Source of the DNA: a virus
Taxonomy: Duplodnaviria; Caudoviricetes
Virus record (IMG/VR): IMGVR_UViG_3300044694_000082
Coordinates: 40,345 to 104,344 of that record
Length of the DNA: 64,000 nt
Direction: 5' to 3' (one strand)
Part shown: positions 2,022 to 33,947 of the stretch, one piece after another
Numbering within the stretch: the first letter of the stretch is position 1
Layout: each line of letters opens with the position of its first letter
Notes under the pieces: generated by a model
The model's database searches: none
What the model saw: only the letters and a program-made list of their open reading frames with translations
What the model was told of the DNA's origin: nothing
Program-made: the position numbers and the translations under genes

Positions 2022-2426
2022 TCAGGGCTCCTCGGTGTGGGCGGTGTTGGCGGGGAGGCACTGCGGGGTGGTGCGGTGCCAGGTGTAGCAGCCGTCGCAC
2101 AGGCAGTCGTCCTCACCGGCGAACATGGCGTCTTCCGGCGTGACCAGACGGCCACAGCACGGGCACGAGTTCGGCGGGGTGTCGGCGGGGTCGATGCGGA
2201 AAGACCAGCCGGACGGCTCATGCAGCTTCGCAACGGCGGTCCCCAGTTGTGCGAGGTCATTACCGAACCGGCGGGCGGCCATGACCGGGACGTCCATGCG
2301 GATCAGGATGTCTCCGGCTGCGTCGCCCGCGTGCTGGATCTCGGTGACCTCTTCGCGCAGGACCACGGCCTTGCCGTAGGCGGCCGGGGCGATGGGCGGG
2401 TGGATGACGGACAGGACGTAGCTCAT
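2022..2426 (-). CDS. Hypothetical protein, paralog family C (H-x-x-SG-x-x-FRI) with C-terminal Zn finger
   Basis: Motif shared with 5133-5585 and 12020-12478. Confidence 0.65.
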   Translation of the reverse strand: MSYVLSVIHPPIAPAAYGKAVVLREEVTEIQHAGDAAGDILIRMDVPVMAARRFGNDLAQLGTAVAKLHEPSGWSFRIDPADTPPNSCPCCGRLVTPEDAMFAGEDDCLCDGCYTWHRTTPQCLPANTAHTEEP

Positions 2427-2575
2427 CGCAGCTCCTCGATGTCGTCGGGGTGTTGGTACTGCTGGATCTCCATGGCCTTCCTGTAGTTGCGAGCCGCGGC
2501 CAGCGAGAAGCCAGCCGACGCGATGGACATGACCAGGGACAGGAGAGAGATGATCAGGGCGACGGTGTCGTTCAT
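2423..2575 (-). CDS. Small membrane protein (50 aa)
   Basis: MNDTVALIISLLSLVMSIASAGFSLAA; ATGA overlaps at both ends; below ORF-track cutoff. Confidence 0.6.
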   Translation of the reverse strand: MNDTVALIISLLSLVMSIASAGFSLAAARNYRKAMEIQQYQHPDDIEELR

Positions 2576-2943
2576 CGGGTGGCCTCCAGCTCGGCGAGGC
2601 GGGCGGTGATGAGCCGCTTCCAGGCGTCGGTGAGGGGGGCGAATACCTCCGTACGCTCGGCGTCGTTCAGTCGGTGCGCGAAGACGCCGATCTCCTTGGT
2701 TCCGAGGGTGAATCCGTGGGCCATCCTGTCGTCGTCCACGTCCAGGCCGAGTTGGTCCATGGCGCCCATGTAGGCGCCGTCACCGTCCGAGTGGCAGACG
2801 ATCTGAGCGGCGACGCAGAACTGGGTGTCGGAAACGTCGAGGGCGCGGAGGTCGACGTCCAGCTCCCAGCCGGGGTAGCGGGCGTCGAGGATGCGGGCGC
2901 CCTTCAGGACGCGGGCGTCGAGTTCGGTGTCGGTGGGGAACAT
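2572..2943 (-). CDS. Hypothetical protein, paralog family A
   Basis: SAS-type RBS; aligns with 3875-4219. Confidence 0.75.
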   Translation of the reverse strand: MFPTDTELDARVLKGARILDARYPGWELDVDLRALDVSDTQFCVAAQIVCHSDGDGAYMGAMDQLGLDVDDDRMAHGFTLGTKEIGVFAHRLNDAERTEVFAPLTDAWKRLITARLAELEATR

Positions 2944-14970: not shown

Positions 14971-15513
14971 TCAGCCCTTGCACAGAACCTCGGTGTTGAT
15001 CTTGCTGCCCAGGTAGTAGACCTCCACCCAGCATCCATGCTTGTGGGGCAGGGTGCGCAGGTTCACGGAGGCCAGACCGGATACGGGGTCGTTGTAGCCC
15101 ATGCGCAGGCAGTCGCCCTGTGCCGTGTCTGCCACCCAGGCGTTCATGGCCTTGTTGTTGCGGTACGTGTCGTATGTCATGTCCGTGACCAGTTCGGTTG
15201 CCCAGGCGCGGACGCCGCCGTGGCGGGGGGCGTTGGCGCAGATGCTGCGGCGGGTGTTCATGTCGTCGTGGGTGCGGCGACTGCCCTCGGGGGTGGAGTA
15301 CCACAGAGCGGCGGCCTGGGCGCGGGTCCCGGTGGTGAGGCAGGCGCGGTCGTAGGCGGGATCGCCCCGGTGGCCGTGGTGGGCGCAGTCGTAGGCCACG
15401 TGGGCGGGGGCGGGGGGTGTCGATGCGTCGGCGGGGGTGGTGGTGGCGAAGGCCAGGGTGAGCAGTCCCGCGCCGATGCCCGCGAACGCGCGCCGAATGA
15501 CGTTGAGGTTCAT
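14971..15513 (-). CDS. Secreted Cys-rich protein
   Basis: Signal peptide MNLNVIRRAFAGIGAGLLTLAFATTTPADA; SAS RBS. Confidence 0.75.
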   Translation of the reverse strand: MNLNVIRRAFAGIGAGLLTLAFATTTPADASTPPAPAHVAYDCAHHGHRGDPAYDRACLTTGTRAQAAALWYSTPEGSRRTHDDMNTRRSICANAPRHGGVRAWATELVTDMTYDTYRNNKAMNAWVADTAQGDCLRMGYNDPVSGLASVNLRTLPHKHGCWVEVYYLGSKINTEVLCKG

Positions 15514-15640
15514 GTCACTTCCTTGTCTGGTGGTGCAGGGTTACCGCCCAGGTGTTGAGCCGGTACCGGGCGCGCACGGCTATTGACACGAGTCACCCCG
15601 TGCCGGGCCGTGCACCCCGGAGATCGGATCACCCCCTAGG

Positions 15641-16126
15641 TCAGGTGGTGGCGCAGTCCGCGCACCATTTGTCACCACTCGTGTGTCGCGCGCATGCGTA
15701 GCAGTGTGTGTCCGCCACGCATCCCTCCACCGTGCACGGACCGTCATCGGGTGTGCTGGCCTGGTCGTCTGCTTCGGCCGCGATGGTGTCGCAGTCGCAT
15801 CCCTCCCCGTTCAGGTGGCCGCACGGCAGGTTGAGAGACCAGGCCGCGCCGATACAGGGAATGGAGTACATGACATCTCCGGGCGGAGGTGCCAGCTCGG
15901 CCAACCGCACACGCACGGTGTGCGTGGTCGCGCACTCGGCGTCATCGGGGTCATCCATGAACTCGACCAAGTACGCCCCGCAGCACCGCCACACGAGACG
16001 TACGCGCCCGTACAGGCCGGTTTCGGGAACGTGGACCGGACGGCCAGGGTCGGCCCACGCAGGACCGTCCAGCGCACCGAGGGGCGCGCCATCGGTGTCA
16101 CACTGATGAATGCTGTAACTGCCCAT
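15641..16126 (-). CDS. Cys-rich acidic hypothetical protein
   Basis: AAGGGAG RBS, MGSYSIHQC start. Confidence 0.6.
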   Translation of the reverse strand: MGSYSIHQCDTDGAPLGALDGPAWADPGRPVHVPETGLYGRVRLVWRCCGAYLVEFMDDPDDAECATTHTVRVRLAELAPPPGDVMYSIPCIGAAWSLNLPCGHLNGEGCDCDTIAAEADDQASTPDDGPCTVEGCVADTHCYACARHTSGDKWCADCATT

Positions 16127-16224
16127 GTGTGTCTCCCTTACTGAGTAGGCCAGGACCGGGCGGCCTGACGCAACGCACGTGCCCGCAGGGGGCCGTGCGC
16201 TGCGACCACTGCCCGGGGGCCGGG

Positions 16225-16782
16225 TCACTTGCTGGCCTTGCCGTTGCCCTGACGGGCCAGACGCGCGGCCATCCGACGCTGAGCCGTGGCACAGGCCCGG
16301 TAGCGACGCTGAGCAGCCTTGGTGCGCTTGGCAGGCTCACGCTGCACAGCCTCATGGTCGAAACGCTCCCGACCCAGGTTCCCGGACATCGTGTTGGAAA
16401 CCGGCTTGTCGCCCTTGCGTTCACGCGGTCCGGTGATCTTGGTAGCGTCCATGGCGCGGCCACGGACCAGGACCGGACCCCGACCGTGACCGGTCGTCAC
16501 CACCGGGTCGGCAACGCCACCCATGGGCAGCGGCTCTTGCCCAGCGCGGATCTTGGCACCCATGATCTCTCGGCGGAGCATGGCGTCACGGGGGTCACCG
16601 ACGCGGGCCCCCTCGTCCGTGAGCGGAACCTGAGGGCCCTCCCCCAGGTCAATCGGCACCTTGTGCGCGGCCACGAAACCCTTGCCAGTCAGCTTGACCT
16701 TGGGTGCGCGGCACTCCGGGCACGACCCGTCAGGGTTCGGCTTGCGCTTCAGCTTGCCAGTGATCTTGCAGTTCATGTTCAT
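16225..16782 (-). CDS. Basic protein with CxxC...H Zn finger and C-terminal Arg-rich motif (candidate RNA-binding/antitermination factor)
   Basis: SCPECRAP...AAH; C-terminus AKRTKAAQRRYRACATAQRRMAARLAR; GAGGGAG RBS. Confidence 0.7.
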   Translation of the reverse strand: MNMNCKITGKLKRKPNPDGSCPECRAPKVKLTGKGFVAAHKVPIDLGEGPQVPLTDEGARVGDPRDAMLRREIMGAKIRAGQEPLPMGGVADPVVTTGHGRGPVLVRGRAMDATKITGPRERKGDKPVSNTMSGNLGRERFDHEAVQREPAKRTKAAQRRYRACATAQRRMAARLARQGNGKASK

Positions 16783-16807
16783 GATCGTTTCTCCCTCATT
16801 TTCCATT

Positions 16808-17325
16808 GACGGGTCGGGGCGGGGGTTGACGCACTCCGGCCGAAACCGGGGGTTGACACACTCCGCCCCGACGCACTGTCTTGCGACCCGTTCGCTAAGC
16901 GTCCGGGCCTTGCCCCAGGGAACGGCTTGCTAGGCCGCACCCCGGAGAAACGTTGGCGTATCCCTGGACACACTCCCGCGTAGCATGCGCACGACTCCCG
17001 TCGCTGAACGCTTAGCCCTCACGCATCTCACAGGTACCGACGCACTCCGAAAAACCGGGGGTCGGGCCGCTCGACCGTGGGCAGGGGGTCCCGAGCACAG
17101 GACGCACCTGTGCTTACAAGGGATCTTGACTCACTGTTCAGTTAACAATGGGCACGACGTGCCCGCGCATGTCCCGACCAAGGGACGTTCTGTCGACGCA
17201 CTCACCCTCCGGGGAGGGCGGGGTCAACCGCCGTCGGTAAAGCTGGGGGTGACACGTGGTCACCATGGGAACCGGTACAGGACCGGCACCCGTGGCAACC
17301 CCGGTAACCGGGGCGCCCCGTAGGG
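16808..17325 (-). ncRNA. Large structured non-coding RNA or leader with repeated AGUGY/CC internal loops
   Basis: No credible ORF; nested stems with G-U pairs on the minus strand; GNRA (GCAA, GGGA) and UNCG (UACG, UUCG) loops; GACRCACT x6. Confidence 0.65.
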
Positions 17326-17754
17326 CTAGGCAGAGACGCTCTCCCTGTGCGCCCGTTCCATGGTCATCAGGGTCATGGCCAGGTCACGGAGGGACTGGAG
17401 GCCCAAGGCTCCGGCATCGGCCAGCATGCTGGCCAGGGTGTCGGGGGTGGACTCCGACAGGCGCACCATGGCGTCGAGTGCCAGCCTGCGCTGGCGTCCC
17501 GTCATGCCCTCCGCCCCACCCTGGCCCTTGTCGATCATGGACCAGGCTTGCAGGTAGGCGCCCGACTCGGCCAGGGTGGGGACCGGGTACGGGTCACGCC
17601 CCACGCTGGCCACAGCGTCGATCACACGACCCAGCTTGGTGAAGTGATCATCCTCGGACTCGCCCGGGGTGGGGATCATCGACGGAGCCTCATTGATCAC
17701 CATCTTGGGGCGCCTGGCGATCTTGCGCAGCACGGAGCTAGGGCTGGCCTTCAT
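17326..17754 (-). CDS. Hypothetical protein, likely first gene of the early transcript
   Basis: GAGAGGA RBS; TGnTAGACT -10-like element at 17830-17838. Confidence 0.6.
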   Translation of the reverse strand: MKASPSSVLRKIARRPKMVINEAPSMIPTPGESEDDHFTKLGRVIDAVASVGRDPYPVPTLAESGAYLQAWSMIDKGQGGAEGMTGRQRRLALDAMVRLSESTPDTLASMLADAGALGLQSLRDLAMTLMTMERAHRESVSA

Positions 17755-22492: not shown

Positions 22493-22728
22493 GCGGCGTC
22501 CCTCATCTCCGGCACGCTGATCTCGTGGATGCCGATGTCCCCGATGGCGATGGCGATGGAGGCGGCATGGGTGATGTTTTCGGCGCCGTACTGGCGGATG
22601 ATGATGGCGATCATCGATTCGGCCGTGTTCTTGGTGATGCCCATCTTCTGGGCGGCCTGGGCGTTGGTGTAGCCGTTGGCCTTGAGGACCATCAGCTCTC
22701 GCCGACGCGCAGAGAGTTCCTCGATCAC
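22489..22728 (-). CDS. LuxR/GerE-type HTH regulator
   Basis: LSARRRELMVLKANGYTNAQAAQKMGITKNTAE. Confidence 0.8.
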   Translation of the reverse strand: MIEELSARRRELMVLKANGYTNAQAAQKMGITKNTAESMIAIIIRQYGAENITHAASIAIAIGDIGIHEISVPEMRDAA

Positions 22729-23453
22729 GGCGCCACCCGCCCGTTCTTGTTGAAGGCCTCGTACGTCAGCGGCATGAGCTTCGCCCACTGGGCCTCCATC
22801 TTCTCGCCCACCATCTCGATCTCCCGCTGCGGGAAGGACGGCACCTTCGCGTCTGGGTGTGTCGTGCGCAGGCCCAGGAAGTGCATCAGCGAACGGGCGT
22901 TGCAGGTGGCGTACATGGAGGAGTAGATGTTCACCGGCAGGCACATGCGGGCGACCTCACGCGCCACACCGATGTCGAGGAGGCCGCGGTAGCTGTCGTA
23001 GGCGGCTGTGGAGAGCACCTTGAGGTTCATGTCGACGGCCACGGTCTGGGAGACGTTGCCGTCCTCGAACCGGTAGGAGCCCGGTTTGCCGACCTGGACG
23101 AGCTTGCGGCCGGGGCCCGGTATATAGAACACCGGTTCCATCTCCTTGTAGCGGCCGGACTCCTCGTTGTAGCTGAATCCGACCCGGTGGCGGTGGAACT
23201 CGCGGAAGACGAAGATCGGCGCCTGCACGAAGAAGGTCATCGAGTTGTGCTCGAAGGGCGAGCCGTGCCGGTCCCGCATCAGGTAGTTGATCAGGCCCTT
23301 GGCGCGGTCGCCGCCAGGATCGCCGTGCAGATCGTCGAGAGAGCCGCCGCCGAGCGTGGAGACCCGGGCGGCGGCGGTGACGTCGAGATCGGACGCGGTG
23401 TGCTTGACCAGTTCGACAGTGACGTCCGATCGAAAGGTCACGTGATGGCTCAT
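22725..23453 (-). CDS. thyX: FAD-dependent thymidylate synthase
   Basis: RHGSPFEH and RHRVGFSYNEESGRY ThyX motif. Confidence 0.97.
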   Translation of the reverse strand: MSHHVTFRSDVTVELVKHTASDLDVTAAARVSTLGGGSLDDLHGDPGGDRAKGLINYLMRDRHGSPFEHNSMTFFVQAPIFVFREFHRHRVGFSYNEESGRYKEMEPVFYIPGPGRKLVQVGKPGSYRFEDGNVSQTVAVDMNLKVLSTAAYDSYRGLLDIGVAREVARMCLPVNIYSSMYATCNARSLMHFLGLRTTHPDAKVPSFPQREIEMVGEKMEAQWAKLMPLTYEAFNKNGRVAP

Positions 23454-23965
23454 GCTGCACGCTCCAGCTCTGCCAGGTTGATAACGCCCTTGGGCCAGCG
23501 CATCGTGATGACCCTGGTGGTGTTGTAGTAGATCTTCCGGCAGCCGTCGCACGGTTCCTCGGTGACGAACAGCCGGGCGCCGGGCAGACGACGGCGGTCA
23601 TCGACGTCCAGAAGCGCGTTCAGTTCGGCGTGGGTACTGATGCATGCCCCGGGCCCCGTGTCGTAGGAGGAGCCCGGCTCGACCGCCTCCGAGCACGGCC
23701 AGCGTCTGCCGCAAGCGCAGACGTACCGGCCGAGGGCGTCCGCTGATACCGACGCCCCGGACACCGGCAGGTAGTGCCGTCCGCGGGGGCAGTCCCCGGC
23801 CAGGCAGCTCTTGCCGCCTGGCCGTGCCCCGTTGTATCCGGCGCCGATGATGCGGTTGTCGACGTCGAGGAGGACCGCGCCGACCTGGCGGCGGGTGCAG
23901 TCGCCGCGTACCTTGACTGCCTCGGCGACGCCCAGGCCGTACTCGTCCCAGGAGGGGCGCGTCAC
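23450..23965 (-). CDS. dCMP deaminase
   Basis: RPSWDEY, CTRRQVGA, GYNG, HAE and PCxxC. Confidence 0.93.
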   Translation of the reverse strand: MTRPSWDEYGLGVAEAVKVRGDCTRRQVGAVLLDVDNRIIGAGYNGARPGGKSCLAGDCPRGRHYLPVSGASVSADALGRYVCACGRRWPCSEAVEPGSSYDTGPGACISTHAELNALLDVDDRRRLPGARLFVTEEPCDGCRKIYYNTTRVITMRWPKGVINLAELERAA

Positions 23966-31549: not shown

Positions 31550-31870
31550 TCACCGCTTCCGGCGGTAGCAGGGGAGCGTCCACACGATCGAGCGGCGCGT
31601 CTTGTCCTTCTGCCGCCAACCCGCGTACATGCTGTCCCGCATCCTCTCCACCGTCGAGGAAGCGCCGGTCGGCAGGAGCGCGTAGTGCCGGTCCGGTGTC
31701 CACCCCATCCTGATGAGGCAGTCCCCGATCTCCGCCCCGGGGAACGGCTCCAGGTCAGGGTCACGGTCCCGGTACAACAGCTCGCAGATGTCGGTGCCCT
31801 TCACCCGCAGGATCCAGTCGTAGTTGTTGTTCACGCGGACGTAGGCGGTCCGCCACTCCAGCTCGCTCAC
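31550..31870 (-). CDS. Hypothetical protein coupled to the recombinase
   Basis: GTGA overlap, GGAGG RBS. Confidence 0.55.
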   Translation of the reverse strand: MSELEWRTAYVRVNNNYDWILRVKGTDICELLYRDRDPDLEPFPGAEIGDCLIRMGWTPDRHYALLPTGASSTVERMRDSMYAGWRQKDKTRRSIVWTLPCYRRKR

Positions 31871-32895
31871 ATCAGCCCCTCCGTCACGCTGGCCTGGTCC
31901 TCCGGCCGGTTGTACAGGTGTACTTGAGTGCCTTTCAGTGACCACCCACCGTGGCGGGCGATCTCGGTCGTGGGCTTACGGGCCCGGAATGCCATGGTTG
32001 CCCCGGATGCGCGGGTGGAGTGAGCACGATACCGGCGCCCGGACGGCGCCGAGAGGCCCGCGGCCAAAGCCGCATTCTTGACAACCCGCCCCAGCCACGC
32101 CCCGTCCATCCGGTAGGGCAGCACCTTGTGCGTCACACCGGTACTGACCAGGCGACGGAACAGGGGCCCCTCGAACTGCCCCCGCGTCTCCAGGGTATCG
32201 ACCCACAGCCGCAGAGCGGAGACCGCGTCGGACAGAGGATGCGAGCCGGGGTCGATCACCAGGTGACGGCCCCGTGCCCGCTGGTCCTCCTTGGACTTCG
32301 CGATGTAGAGGACGACCTTGCCGCGGGTGAAGCGGACGTCGCCGCAGTCCAGGCCCACCAGTTGGGAGCGCCGGGCGAACGCGCCGGTCGCCACCAGCAG
32401 CGCGGCCCGGTCCCGGATACCGAGGACATCGTGGCCGATGGTCGCGGACATCCGCCGCAGCTCGTCGATGGTGTAGGTGGCTGCCTCGTCGCGCCGCCAG
32501 CCTGCCTCGACCAGCTGCCTGCGGTACGCTCCGACCACCCGCCACGCGTCGTCCCGGTTGGGCATGTGCTTCTTGGGCACGTCGTACTGGTCCTGGAAGA
32601 ACACCACCGCGGACAGGCCCTGTTCGATGATGGACAGCGAGTGCCCGAGGTCGCACCGCTCGGCGATCCAGTTGGTCAGGTCGTCGGAGGAGACAGGCAC
32701 CGGCCGCACACCGTTGTCCAGACACCACGTCAGGAACTTGCGCCACTCGCGCTTGTAGGCCTTGAAGGTCTCCACCGGTACGGACTCGCGCAAGCGACGC
32801 GCCGCGGACTCTGACAGATTCCTCCGCCGGGGCGGCTGCGGCGTCGGGAGAAGATCATTTACAGCGTTCGTCCACTCGAAGTTGACGAGAGTCAT
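31867..32895 (-). CDS. Tyrosine recombinase, Cre-like
   Basis: RDRA...ARRSQL (R), SKEDQ (K), HSTR (HxxR), HGGW (W), terminal Y; SAM-like N-domain; no obvious arm-binding domain. Confidence 0.9.
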   Translation of the reverse strand: MTLVNFEWTNAVNDLLPTPQPPRRRNLSESAARRLRESVPVETFKAYKREWRKFLTWCLDNGVRPVPVSSDDLTNWIAERCDLGHSLSIIEQGLSAVVFFQDQYDVPKKHMPNRDDAWRVVGAYRRQLVEAGWRRDEAATYTIDELRRMSATIGHDVLGIRDRAALLVATGAFARRSQLVGLDCGDVRFTRGKVVLYIAKSKEDQRARGRHLVIDPGSHPLSDAVSALRLWVDTLETRGQFEGPLFRRLVSTGVTHKVLPYRMDGAWLGRVVKNAALAAGLSAPSGRRYRAHSTRASGATMAFRARKPTTEIARHGGWSLKGTQVHLYNRPEDQASVTEGLM

Positions 32896-33163
32896 AGTAA
32901 GGCATCTTACAACCACTCCCGTCAAAGGCGAGTTGACATTTCGAAGATCGTTTCAGCTGGAGTACCGGGATCATCGCCCTCGTCGGCTGGCGTCGCTGAG
33001 CCCAGACATACGAGCGCCCCGCCTTGCGGTCACCATGTGCCTGGACGGCTGGCTCCTACGACGGGGCGCTCTGGATGAACCAGGCTCAGGGGCCCGGCAA
33101 CGCCTAGGACCCGAAGGTCCCGACGTGCGCAGTATCCCACACCACCATGCAAAGGGATTCCCC

Positions 33164-33876: not shown

Positions 33877-33947
33877 GGGAGCTTGGTGTAGCGGGAACAC
33901 GGTCCTCTCCAAAGGGACAGTCAGGGGTTCGATTCCTCTAGCTCCCG
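33877..33947 (+). tRNA. tRNA-Trp (CCA)
   Basis: Acceptor stem GGGAGCT/AGCTCCC; anticodon loop CT-CCA-AA; T-loop TTCGATT; G discriminator; CCA end not fully encoded. Confidence 0.9.

Follow-up and report, generated by a model that had tools for sequence, protein, structure and literature searches.

The 519-nt gene-free gap between two minus-strand open reading frames (ORFs) in the early region of an uncultured soil actinophage encodes a conserved, structured minus-strand RNA built around a repeated internal-loop module in which AGUGY on one strand faces CC on the other. The best-conserved central block of this RNA appears to be a diverged form of the boxA/boxC element of actinobacterial rrn leaders, and the gene directly downstream encodes a small basic protein with conserved Arg-rich patches. 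The RNA was analyzed within a 64-kb stretch of DNA (66% G+C; hereafter the window) that makes up the end of an IMG/VR virus record of 104 kb. Minus-strand early-type genes occupy 1–33 kb of the window and are followed by an integrase gene, a tRNA gene, and then plus-strand structural genes. Among cultured phages, the nearest portal protein is that of a Streptomyces phage (46% identity), and the sequencing runs that contain the window DNA are soil and rhizosphere DNA runs only. A ThyX-type thymidylate synthase gene (22725–23552), a tyrosine integrase gene (31867–32925), and an adjoining tRNA gene (33877–33947) were also observed, and the phage is probably temperate. The gap separates an upstream ORF at 17326–17754 from a downstream ORF at 16225–16806, the true start of which is probably at 16782, giving a 185-aa product encoded at 16225–16782. 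As delimited by the upstream stop codon and this start codon, the whole non-coding element covers 16783–17325; all features of the RNA described below lie on the minus strand.

Conservation and covariation of the RNA

Relatives were drawn from a large protein collection and one metagenome scan only. The protein collection holds 15 relatives of the downstream protein, and the RNA was found upstream of this one orphan gene family in 14 metagenomic relatives (13 distinct sequences). A gene-free gap of 500–900 nt precedes the gene in every contig with enough upstream sequence, and the gaps share sequence blocks. Searches of cultured-phage DNA with the gap region gave no match, and searches of IMG/VR and GTDB genomes with the flanking proteins gave no relatives. 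A covariance model of the 3′ domain (R1), built from three sequences, detects all relatives and nothing in 30 unrelated loci, and finds the RNA once in the 104-kb record. The sequence pattern ACGCCAACGTT..CTAGCA gave 23 viral and 120 genome matches; R1 was used to score the viral matches only, and a single one of these, L035, was real. When all of the pattern matches were put through a simple motif screen, three passed, and only L035 was high in GC and had the right flanks. In this further relative, the downstream protein is encoded at 2074–2811 (minus strand) of a 48-kb viral contig.

Compensatory changes support the fold in the 3′ domain, the central domain, and the M1 hairpin. For the 3′ domain, the alignment of which was fitted to the R1 model and so leans towards structure, 94% of the pair cells are standard pairs (35–52% with the partners slid), 39 of the 46 pairs show compensatory changes on both sides, and the covariation score is 0.67 compared with 0.06–0.12 in the slid controls. 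Helices 6 and 8, in the 3′ arm of this domain, are 100% paired, and each of their pairs covaries. The alignments of the central domain and of the M1 hairpin were made with MAFFT and are structure-blind. Within group A (the window, L019, L010, and L006), pairing reaches 98% in the central domain, where 11 pairs are compensatory, and in M1 nine of the 15 pairs keep pairing through two-sided changes; helix 4, in the M2 hairpin, is 100% paired, with five pairs changed on both sides. The M3 helix is invariant within group A and therefore shows no covariation. A first-pass annotation of the window had proposed a large structured RNA around a repeated module, and both the pairing and the covariation among the collected homologs bear this out.

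The same annotation had held that G-U pairs favor the minus strand, which agrees with the 49 G-U or U-G cells and 5 A-C or C-A cells counted. Pairing thus works only on the gene strand, which argues for an RNA and against a DNA palindrome. Folding-energy z-scores (−2.1 for the minus strand, −3.0 for the plus strand) do not separate the strands. No conserved reading frame was found: translated similarity extends over all six frames and changes frame from one relative to the next, the pattern expected when conservation acts at the nucleotide level. A GC3 screen placed no gene in 15513–17326, a result of little weight as the screen also misses the flanking gene at 16225–16806. Rfam 15 yielded no match for the window at the gathering score and none at E ≤ 1 for the window locus and four relatives; the families covered include GOLLD, ROOL, OLE, HEARO, raiA, riboswitches, and introns. 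The first-pass annotation had likewise not recognized the RNA as a tRNA, tmRNA, RNase P RNA, or intron.

Architecture and the repeated loop

Exact copies of GACRCACT in the gap are located at 16828, 16855, 16870, 16967, 17039, and 17195, the six positions listed by the first-pass annotation. All are on the plus strand, and they make up six of the eight copies in the window. Over the whole 64 kb the 8-mer is not enriched (8 seen, 6.6 expected); the copies are clustered, with six in 518 nt against an expectation of about 0.05. Read on the minus strand, each of the six copies is AGUGY followed by G-Y-C and faces CC in a 5×2 internal loop, as had been described from stems of different sequence. 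The helices flanking the loop vary in sequence both between copies and between phages, and the loop is kept. A script was used to count NGUGN/CC loops with flanking pairs of at least 3+3 (sum at least 8); it returned nine candidates in the sense RNA of the window, none in the reverse complement, and a mean of 1.5 (maximum 5) in dinucleotide-preserving shuffles (n = 100). The motif pattern GGGGTTGACRCACTCCG had four matches in viral contigs, all unrelated. We know of no named RNA motif with the AGUGY/CC 5×2 signature. The loop resembles a kink-turn in its asymmetry of 5 versus 2 nt, in its recurrence in many helices, and in being a likely protein-binding or bending element. A kink-turn is defined by a 3-nt bulge followed by tandem sheared G-A/A-G pairs, and this assignment was rejected: all six copies have CC as the short strand and NGUGY as the long strand, which makes tandem sheared G-A pairs impossible.

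Directly after the upstream stop codon, the RNA begins with hairpin P1 (CCCCGG-UUA-CCGGGG; 17299–17313), assigned from sequence and fold, which may be terminator-like but lacks a U tract; the corresponding hairpins of relatives are longer and GC-rich. The 5′ domain continues with the predicted hairpins P2 and P3 (17248–17287), of which P3 stands where relatives carry a GGUGAUCUUGG hairpin. M1 (17192–17229; motif copy 17195), a hairpin with an AGUGC/CC 5×2 loop, was assigned by comparison within group A. The boxA/boxC-like block (17125–17153) and hairpin P7 (17095–17113), which was assigned from the fold, precede the central multi-branch domain. This domain is closed by M3, a long-range pairing of the 5′ strand GGAC-CC-CCUGC (17079–17092) with the 3′ strand GCGGG-AGUGU-GUCC (16966–16979; motif copy 16967), in which AGUGU occupies 16970–16974. 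M2 (17037–17066; motif copy 17039) is a second AGUGC/CC hairpin and is supported by covariation; its region is also the sole terminator-like site found by a simple scan inside the RNA on this strand. Motif variants at 17101 and 17128 had been listed beside the exact copies. They are present, but neither is a 5×2 module: the first lies in the hairpin loop of P7 and the second in the boxA/boxC-like block.

The most conserved sequence of the 3′ half is the junction UACGCCAACGUU (16949–16960). It contains the self-complementary hexamer AACGUU, which could allow RNA-RNA dimerization or an alternative helix with AAGCGUU at 17009–17015. The 3′ domain proper consists of hairpin Ha (16915–16945; helices 1–3 of the model) with a conserved CUAGCAA loop, Hb (16885–16909; helices 4 and 5), a covarying stem around an invariant CGC-UUA-GCG hairpin, and the 3′ arm Hc (16808–16880; helices 6–11), in which four helices alternate with three AGUGY/CC loops: M4 (16873–16877), M5 (16858–16862), and M6 (16831–16835). 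The 3′ arm therefore holds the three stacked copies first described, and the pseudo-symmetric two are M5 and M6, arranged around one helix that has tandem C-A mismatches in the window. A helix between GCUAAGCGU and ACGCUUAGC that the first-pass annotation had included fared less well. The 9-nt complement exists, but one of this length is about what chance would give within about 520 nt, and the comparison favors a local hairpin for the 3′ half, with an invariant CGC-NUN-GCG inside a covarying stem. The Shine-Dalgarno sequence of the downstream gene, GAGGGAG (16791–16797), follows 10 nt after Hc.

Between relatives, the long strand of the loop changes more than its geometry. Group A has AGUGY, L011 and L017 have AGUGC or NGUGC, and L012, L009, L016, and L035 have UGUGY or GGUGU; the short strand opposite is CC in all module-bearing groups. 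The module also shifts helices, as the CUAGCAA-loop hairpin Ha bears NGUGN/CC in five group C RNAs and not in the window. In a third clade, made up of L007, L008, L015, and the fragment L020, the module is absent and the hairpins are plain; several of these hairpins have a GAUCA-type loop. In the 3′ arm of these four RNAs, a plain 11–12 bp GC-rich hairpin followed by UGGUUC or UUGGUUC was observed before the ribosome binding site (RBS), and this arrangement resembles an intrinsic terminator or attenuator-like element.

The rrn-like block and the downstream gene

The likeness of the central block (17125–17153) to the boxA/boxC element of actinobacterial rrn leaders is new here and was absent from the first-pass annotation. 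In assemblies of Rhodococcus, Saccharomonospora, and Mycobacterium, the sequence GAGAACUCAAYAGUG is located about 175 nt before 16S and at the ends of contigs; it is also present in a complete genome. Matches of the AACUCAACAGCGUGCC type occur in 94 of 151 sampled genomes of the class, in copy numbers typical of rrn operons; the reversed control gave almost no matches. In a second tally, 50 of 401 Actinomycetota genomes gave matches. Genomes flagged as unpublished (G007, G042, G051, G063, G070, G223, G260, G290, G340, G389, and G550) count only in these two tallies, and the leaders examined in detail (L164–L171, L176–L186, L191, and L193) are from other genomes. The match was located 100–215 nt upstream of 16S in five of six loci tested; in the sixth (L177), it is the complementary strand, in the 16S–23S spacer. 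In L193, the variant UUGAGAACUGAACAG precedes 16S. The gamma-proteobacterial boxA consensus GYUCUUUAANA (PMC5725501) can be aligned with the host sequence GCUCCUUGAGAAC. boxA binds NusB/NusE (PMC3177189), and NusA binds specifically to the flanking boxC in the M. tuberculosis rrn leader (PMC2724277).

Several relatives match host leaders or spacers closely over this block (26/26 nt in L019, 25/27 in L015, 18/18 in L008, 21/23 in L010 to the Mycobacterium type, and 17/18 in L007 to the spacer type), and the identity between phage and host is restricted to it. The single copy in the window is diverged: it matches the host variant UUGAGAACUGAACAG at 13 of 15 positions and reads GCCCAUUGUUAA against GCUCCUUGAGAA in the host, and its boxA part is less close (GCCCAUUGUUAAC compared with GCUCCUUGAGAAC). 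None of the 401 Actinomycetota genomes sampled contained the exact window variant, and group C relatives have only a AACUGAAUA-like piece without a clear boxA. The block is predicted to be unpaired in the group-A consensus. Compared with the bacterial rrn antiterminator (boxB-boxA-boxC; NusA/B/E/G, SuhB, and S4) in its actinobacterial form, the RNA shares this block, which is identical over 18–26 nt in relatives, diverged in the window, and predicted to be single-stranded. It differs in that the likeness is limited to the block and that a protein-coding operon follows rather than rRNA, and a complementary trailer strand of the type in the host 16S processing stem was not found. The idea that the module mimics a loop of that processing stem was considered and dropped: in one host, the boxC region of the leader faces a different loop, and in another, the spacer is an exact 16-nt complement of the leader block and would give a perfect duplex. 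Blocks of the boxA type (CCUUGAGAACUGAACAG) were also seen away from rRNA genes in two large actinobacterial genomes (L190, G468:C1:3276166; L189, G152:C1:4393659). These are not accompanied by the 3′ domain of the phage RNA and may be other Nus-regulated leaders or prophage elements.

The gene downstream is always directly adjacent to the RNA, with about 10–40 nt from the RNA to the RBS. Its 185-aa product has a pI of 10.8, an N-terminal Cys3-His motif of invariant residues (Cys5, Cys21, Cys24, and His40), and conserved Arg-rich patches. The protein is apparently mostly disordered as modeled by AlphaFold (mean pLDDT 60), with a basic Arg-rich C-terminal helix at residues 155–183 predicted at pLDDT 87–93. 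No Pfam or PHROG family matched at E ≤ 0.01, tblastn of the protein against 50,697 phage records gave no match, and the ESM Atlas offered no useful neighbor. Two C-terminal types of the protein can be distinguished, one occurring with GUG/CC-module RNAs (12 loci) and the other with plain-hairpin RNAs (L007, L008, L015, and L020). The association reflects one split between two clades and so represents one evolutionary event. In L035, the RNA and the central and C-terminal motifs of the protein are kept, and the N-terminus is different and lacks the Cys3-His motif. Upstream of the RNA, L010 (2172–2300) and L035 (3600–3690, minus strand) share a block in which a TTGATC hexamer is followed by the near-perfect palindrome GATCTTGRA-n-TYCAAGATC. 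The block looks like an operator over a promoter, and the equivalent place in the window has nothing similar.

A conserved block in the 5′ domain of L006–L019 (GGUGAUCUUGG; GGUGAUCUUG) is complementary to codons 4–7 of the gene (UGCAAGAUCAC) in 12 of 13 loci. In the window, an unrelated hairpin (17248–17264) replaces this block. The complementarity may reflect a regulatory alternative pairing or be a by-product of GATC-rich hairpins. Long-range pairing of GGUGAUCUUG with codons 4–7 was rejected as a general feature, because the block is missing from the window and the codons from L035, and because a local hairpin occurs in every relative. Near the RBS, CAAGAUCA recurs in L010 and L017.

Possible functions of the RNA

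We tentatively read the gap RNA as a composite nut-like site or leader for processive antitermination in which the modules would be the counterpart of boxB, a reading that falls a little short of an even balance. According to this reading, the RNA of about 520 nt would be transcribed together with the minus-strand early genes, and its single-stranded central block would, on emerging, recruit host NusB/NusE(S10) and NusA. The six AGUGY/CC modules would bind the small Arg-rich protein encoded directly downstream, which is the candidate RNA partner, and the RNA-tethered complex would let the polymerase resist termination over the long series of small early genes. That the RNA is transcribed, recruits Nus factors, binds the protein through its modules, and brings about antitermination is inferred from a layout in which a host-type boxA and then the gene for a disordered Arg-rich protein precede the early genes as in nutL-N of lambda.

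In lambda, N is bound by boxB and is encoded by the first gene downstream of nutL. Common to both arrangements are an RNA site where the early genes begin, a boxA-type element in it that is akin to the rrn signal of the host, and, directly downstream, the gene of a small, basic, disordered protein that has an Arg-rich helix. The phage RNA differs in having no conserved boxB hairpin with a GNRA-like pentaloop and instead six 5×2 loops spread over about 520 nt. The 185-aa protein shows no similarity to N in sequence and carries its Arg-rich helix at the C-terminus; furthermore, the host is probably actinobacterial. Borrowing of rrn boxA by phages is established for lambda nut (PMC2724277) and T7 (PMC3709561), which also favors antitermination. 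The T7 early leader is alike in that a phage takes the host rrn boxA, and it differs in host phylum and sequences, as well as in that the boxA-like block here is inside a module-built RNA tied to a specific gene. The earlier suggestion of an antitermination leader thus gains support from a conserved core that is an rrn boxA/boxC variant and from the Arg-rich gene that follows.

Counted against antitermination are the divergence of the boxA-like block in the window, the lack of a clear boxA in group C, and the outcome of simple scans, in which the gap showed no sigma-70-like promoter and the downstream sequence no clear intrinsic terminators. Of the interpretation given by the first-pass annotation, the structured minus-strand RNA, the module, and the absence of an Rfam match stand, and the placement at the head of the early operon is less secure: no promoter was found, and the RNA may be either a 5′ leader or an intercistronic segment after the gene at 17326–17754. 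An rrn or lambda nut site needs less than 70 nt, so most of the 520-nt RNA is not explained by antitermination.

A broader proposal, which we regard as rather doubtful, is that AGUGY/CC is a new portable RNA-protein module and the RNA a multivalent platform that would load several copies of the Arg-rich protein, along with Nus factors, onto the polymerase in a system that arose independently of lambda N-nut, or else a decoy acting in trans on the host rRNA transcription machinery. A related but unlikely possibility is that an ornate, stable RNA is released from the transcript and stands alone as a scaffold or decoy for host factors, with either the rrn-like block titrating Nus factors or the modules titrating another host RNA-binding protein, such that host transcription or rRNA synthesis would be redirected. 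Its size and conserved structure far beyond the needs of a nut site, the gain and loss of modules on different helices between clades, and the single RNA copy per genome would all suit such a role, as would the occurrence of a short motif in many structural contexts, which resembles multivalent sponge RNAs. The RNA shares with RNAs of the GOLLD, ROOL, and CsrB type a large size, conserved structure, phage association, and a repeated short motif; it differs from them in having no Rfam match, in carrying the motif in internal rather than hairpin loops, and in being fused to an mRNA. Against a released RNA, the RNA always abuts the RBS of the same gene family at about 10–40 nt, and no terminator or processing signal separates it from the gene.

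The proximity to the RBS suits a different explanation, likewise improbable on the present evidence, in which the Arg-rich protein would bind its own leader as a translational or stability operator with feedback as in ribosomal-protein leaders. The three-module 3′ arm is separated from the Shine-Dalgarno sequence by 10 nt, RNA and gene strictly occur together, the type of protein changes along with that of the module, and the 5′ block is complementary to codons 4–7 in 12 of 13 loci. Such an operator would leave the rrn boxA/boxC copy unexplained, and the window RNA lacks the 5′ block; L035, moreover, keeps the RNA despite a different protein N-terminus and no complementary codons. An operator is compatible with an antitermination leader, and the two are not exclusive. 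Finally, a double-stranded DNA array of operators or iterons or a replication origin, for which direct 8-mer repeats on one strand of a gene-free gap would be typical and the TTGAC in some copies resembles a −35 hexamer, is very improbable, as is the structure-independent DNA operator that the first-pass annotation had raised against its own proposal, since the conserved partner of each copy is CC across a helix with covarying flanks, G-U tolerance is strand-specific (49 versus 5), the motif sequence varies between clades with the loop geometry kept, the spacing is irregular, and all nine module candidates are on the sense strand and none on its reverse complement.

No description of processive antitermination in actinophages was found in the literature searched, and most of what is known of Nus factors in actinobacteria comes from the M. 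tuberculosis rrn leader. The RNA family offers a test system that combines a host-like boxA/boxC, a repeated loop motif strongly supported by comparison, and an adjacent candidate protein, and it extends phage copying of the rRNA antitermination signal ahead of large folded RNAs to a second bacterial phylum. If the motif binds a protein, it would be a new entry among the few modular RNA recognition elements and a possible tool like boxB-N and MS2. If the RNA is a multivalent platform, it would represent an actinobacterial antitermination built on internal loops and a new class of phage ribonucleoprotein.
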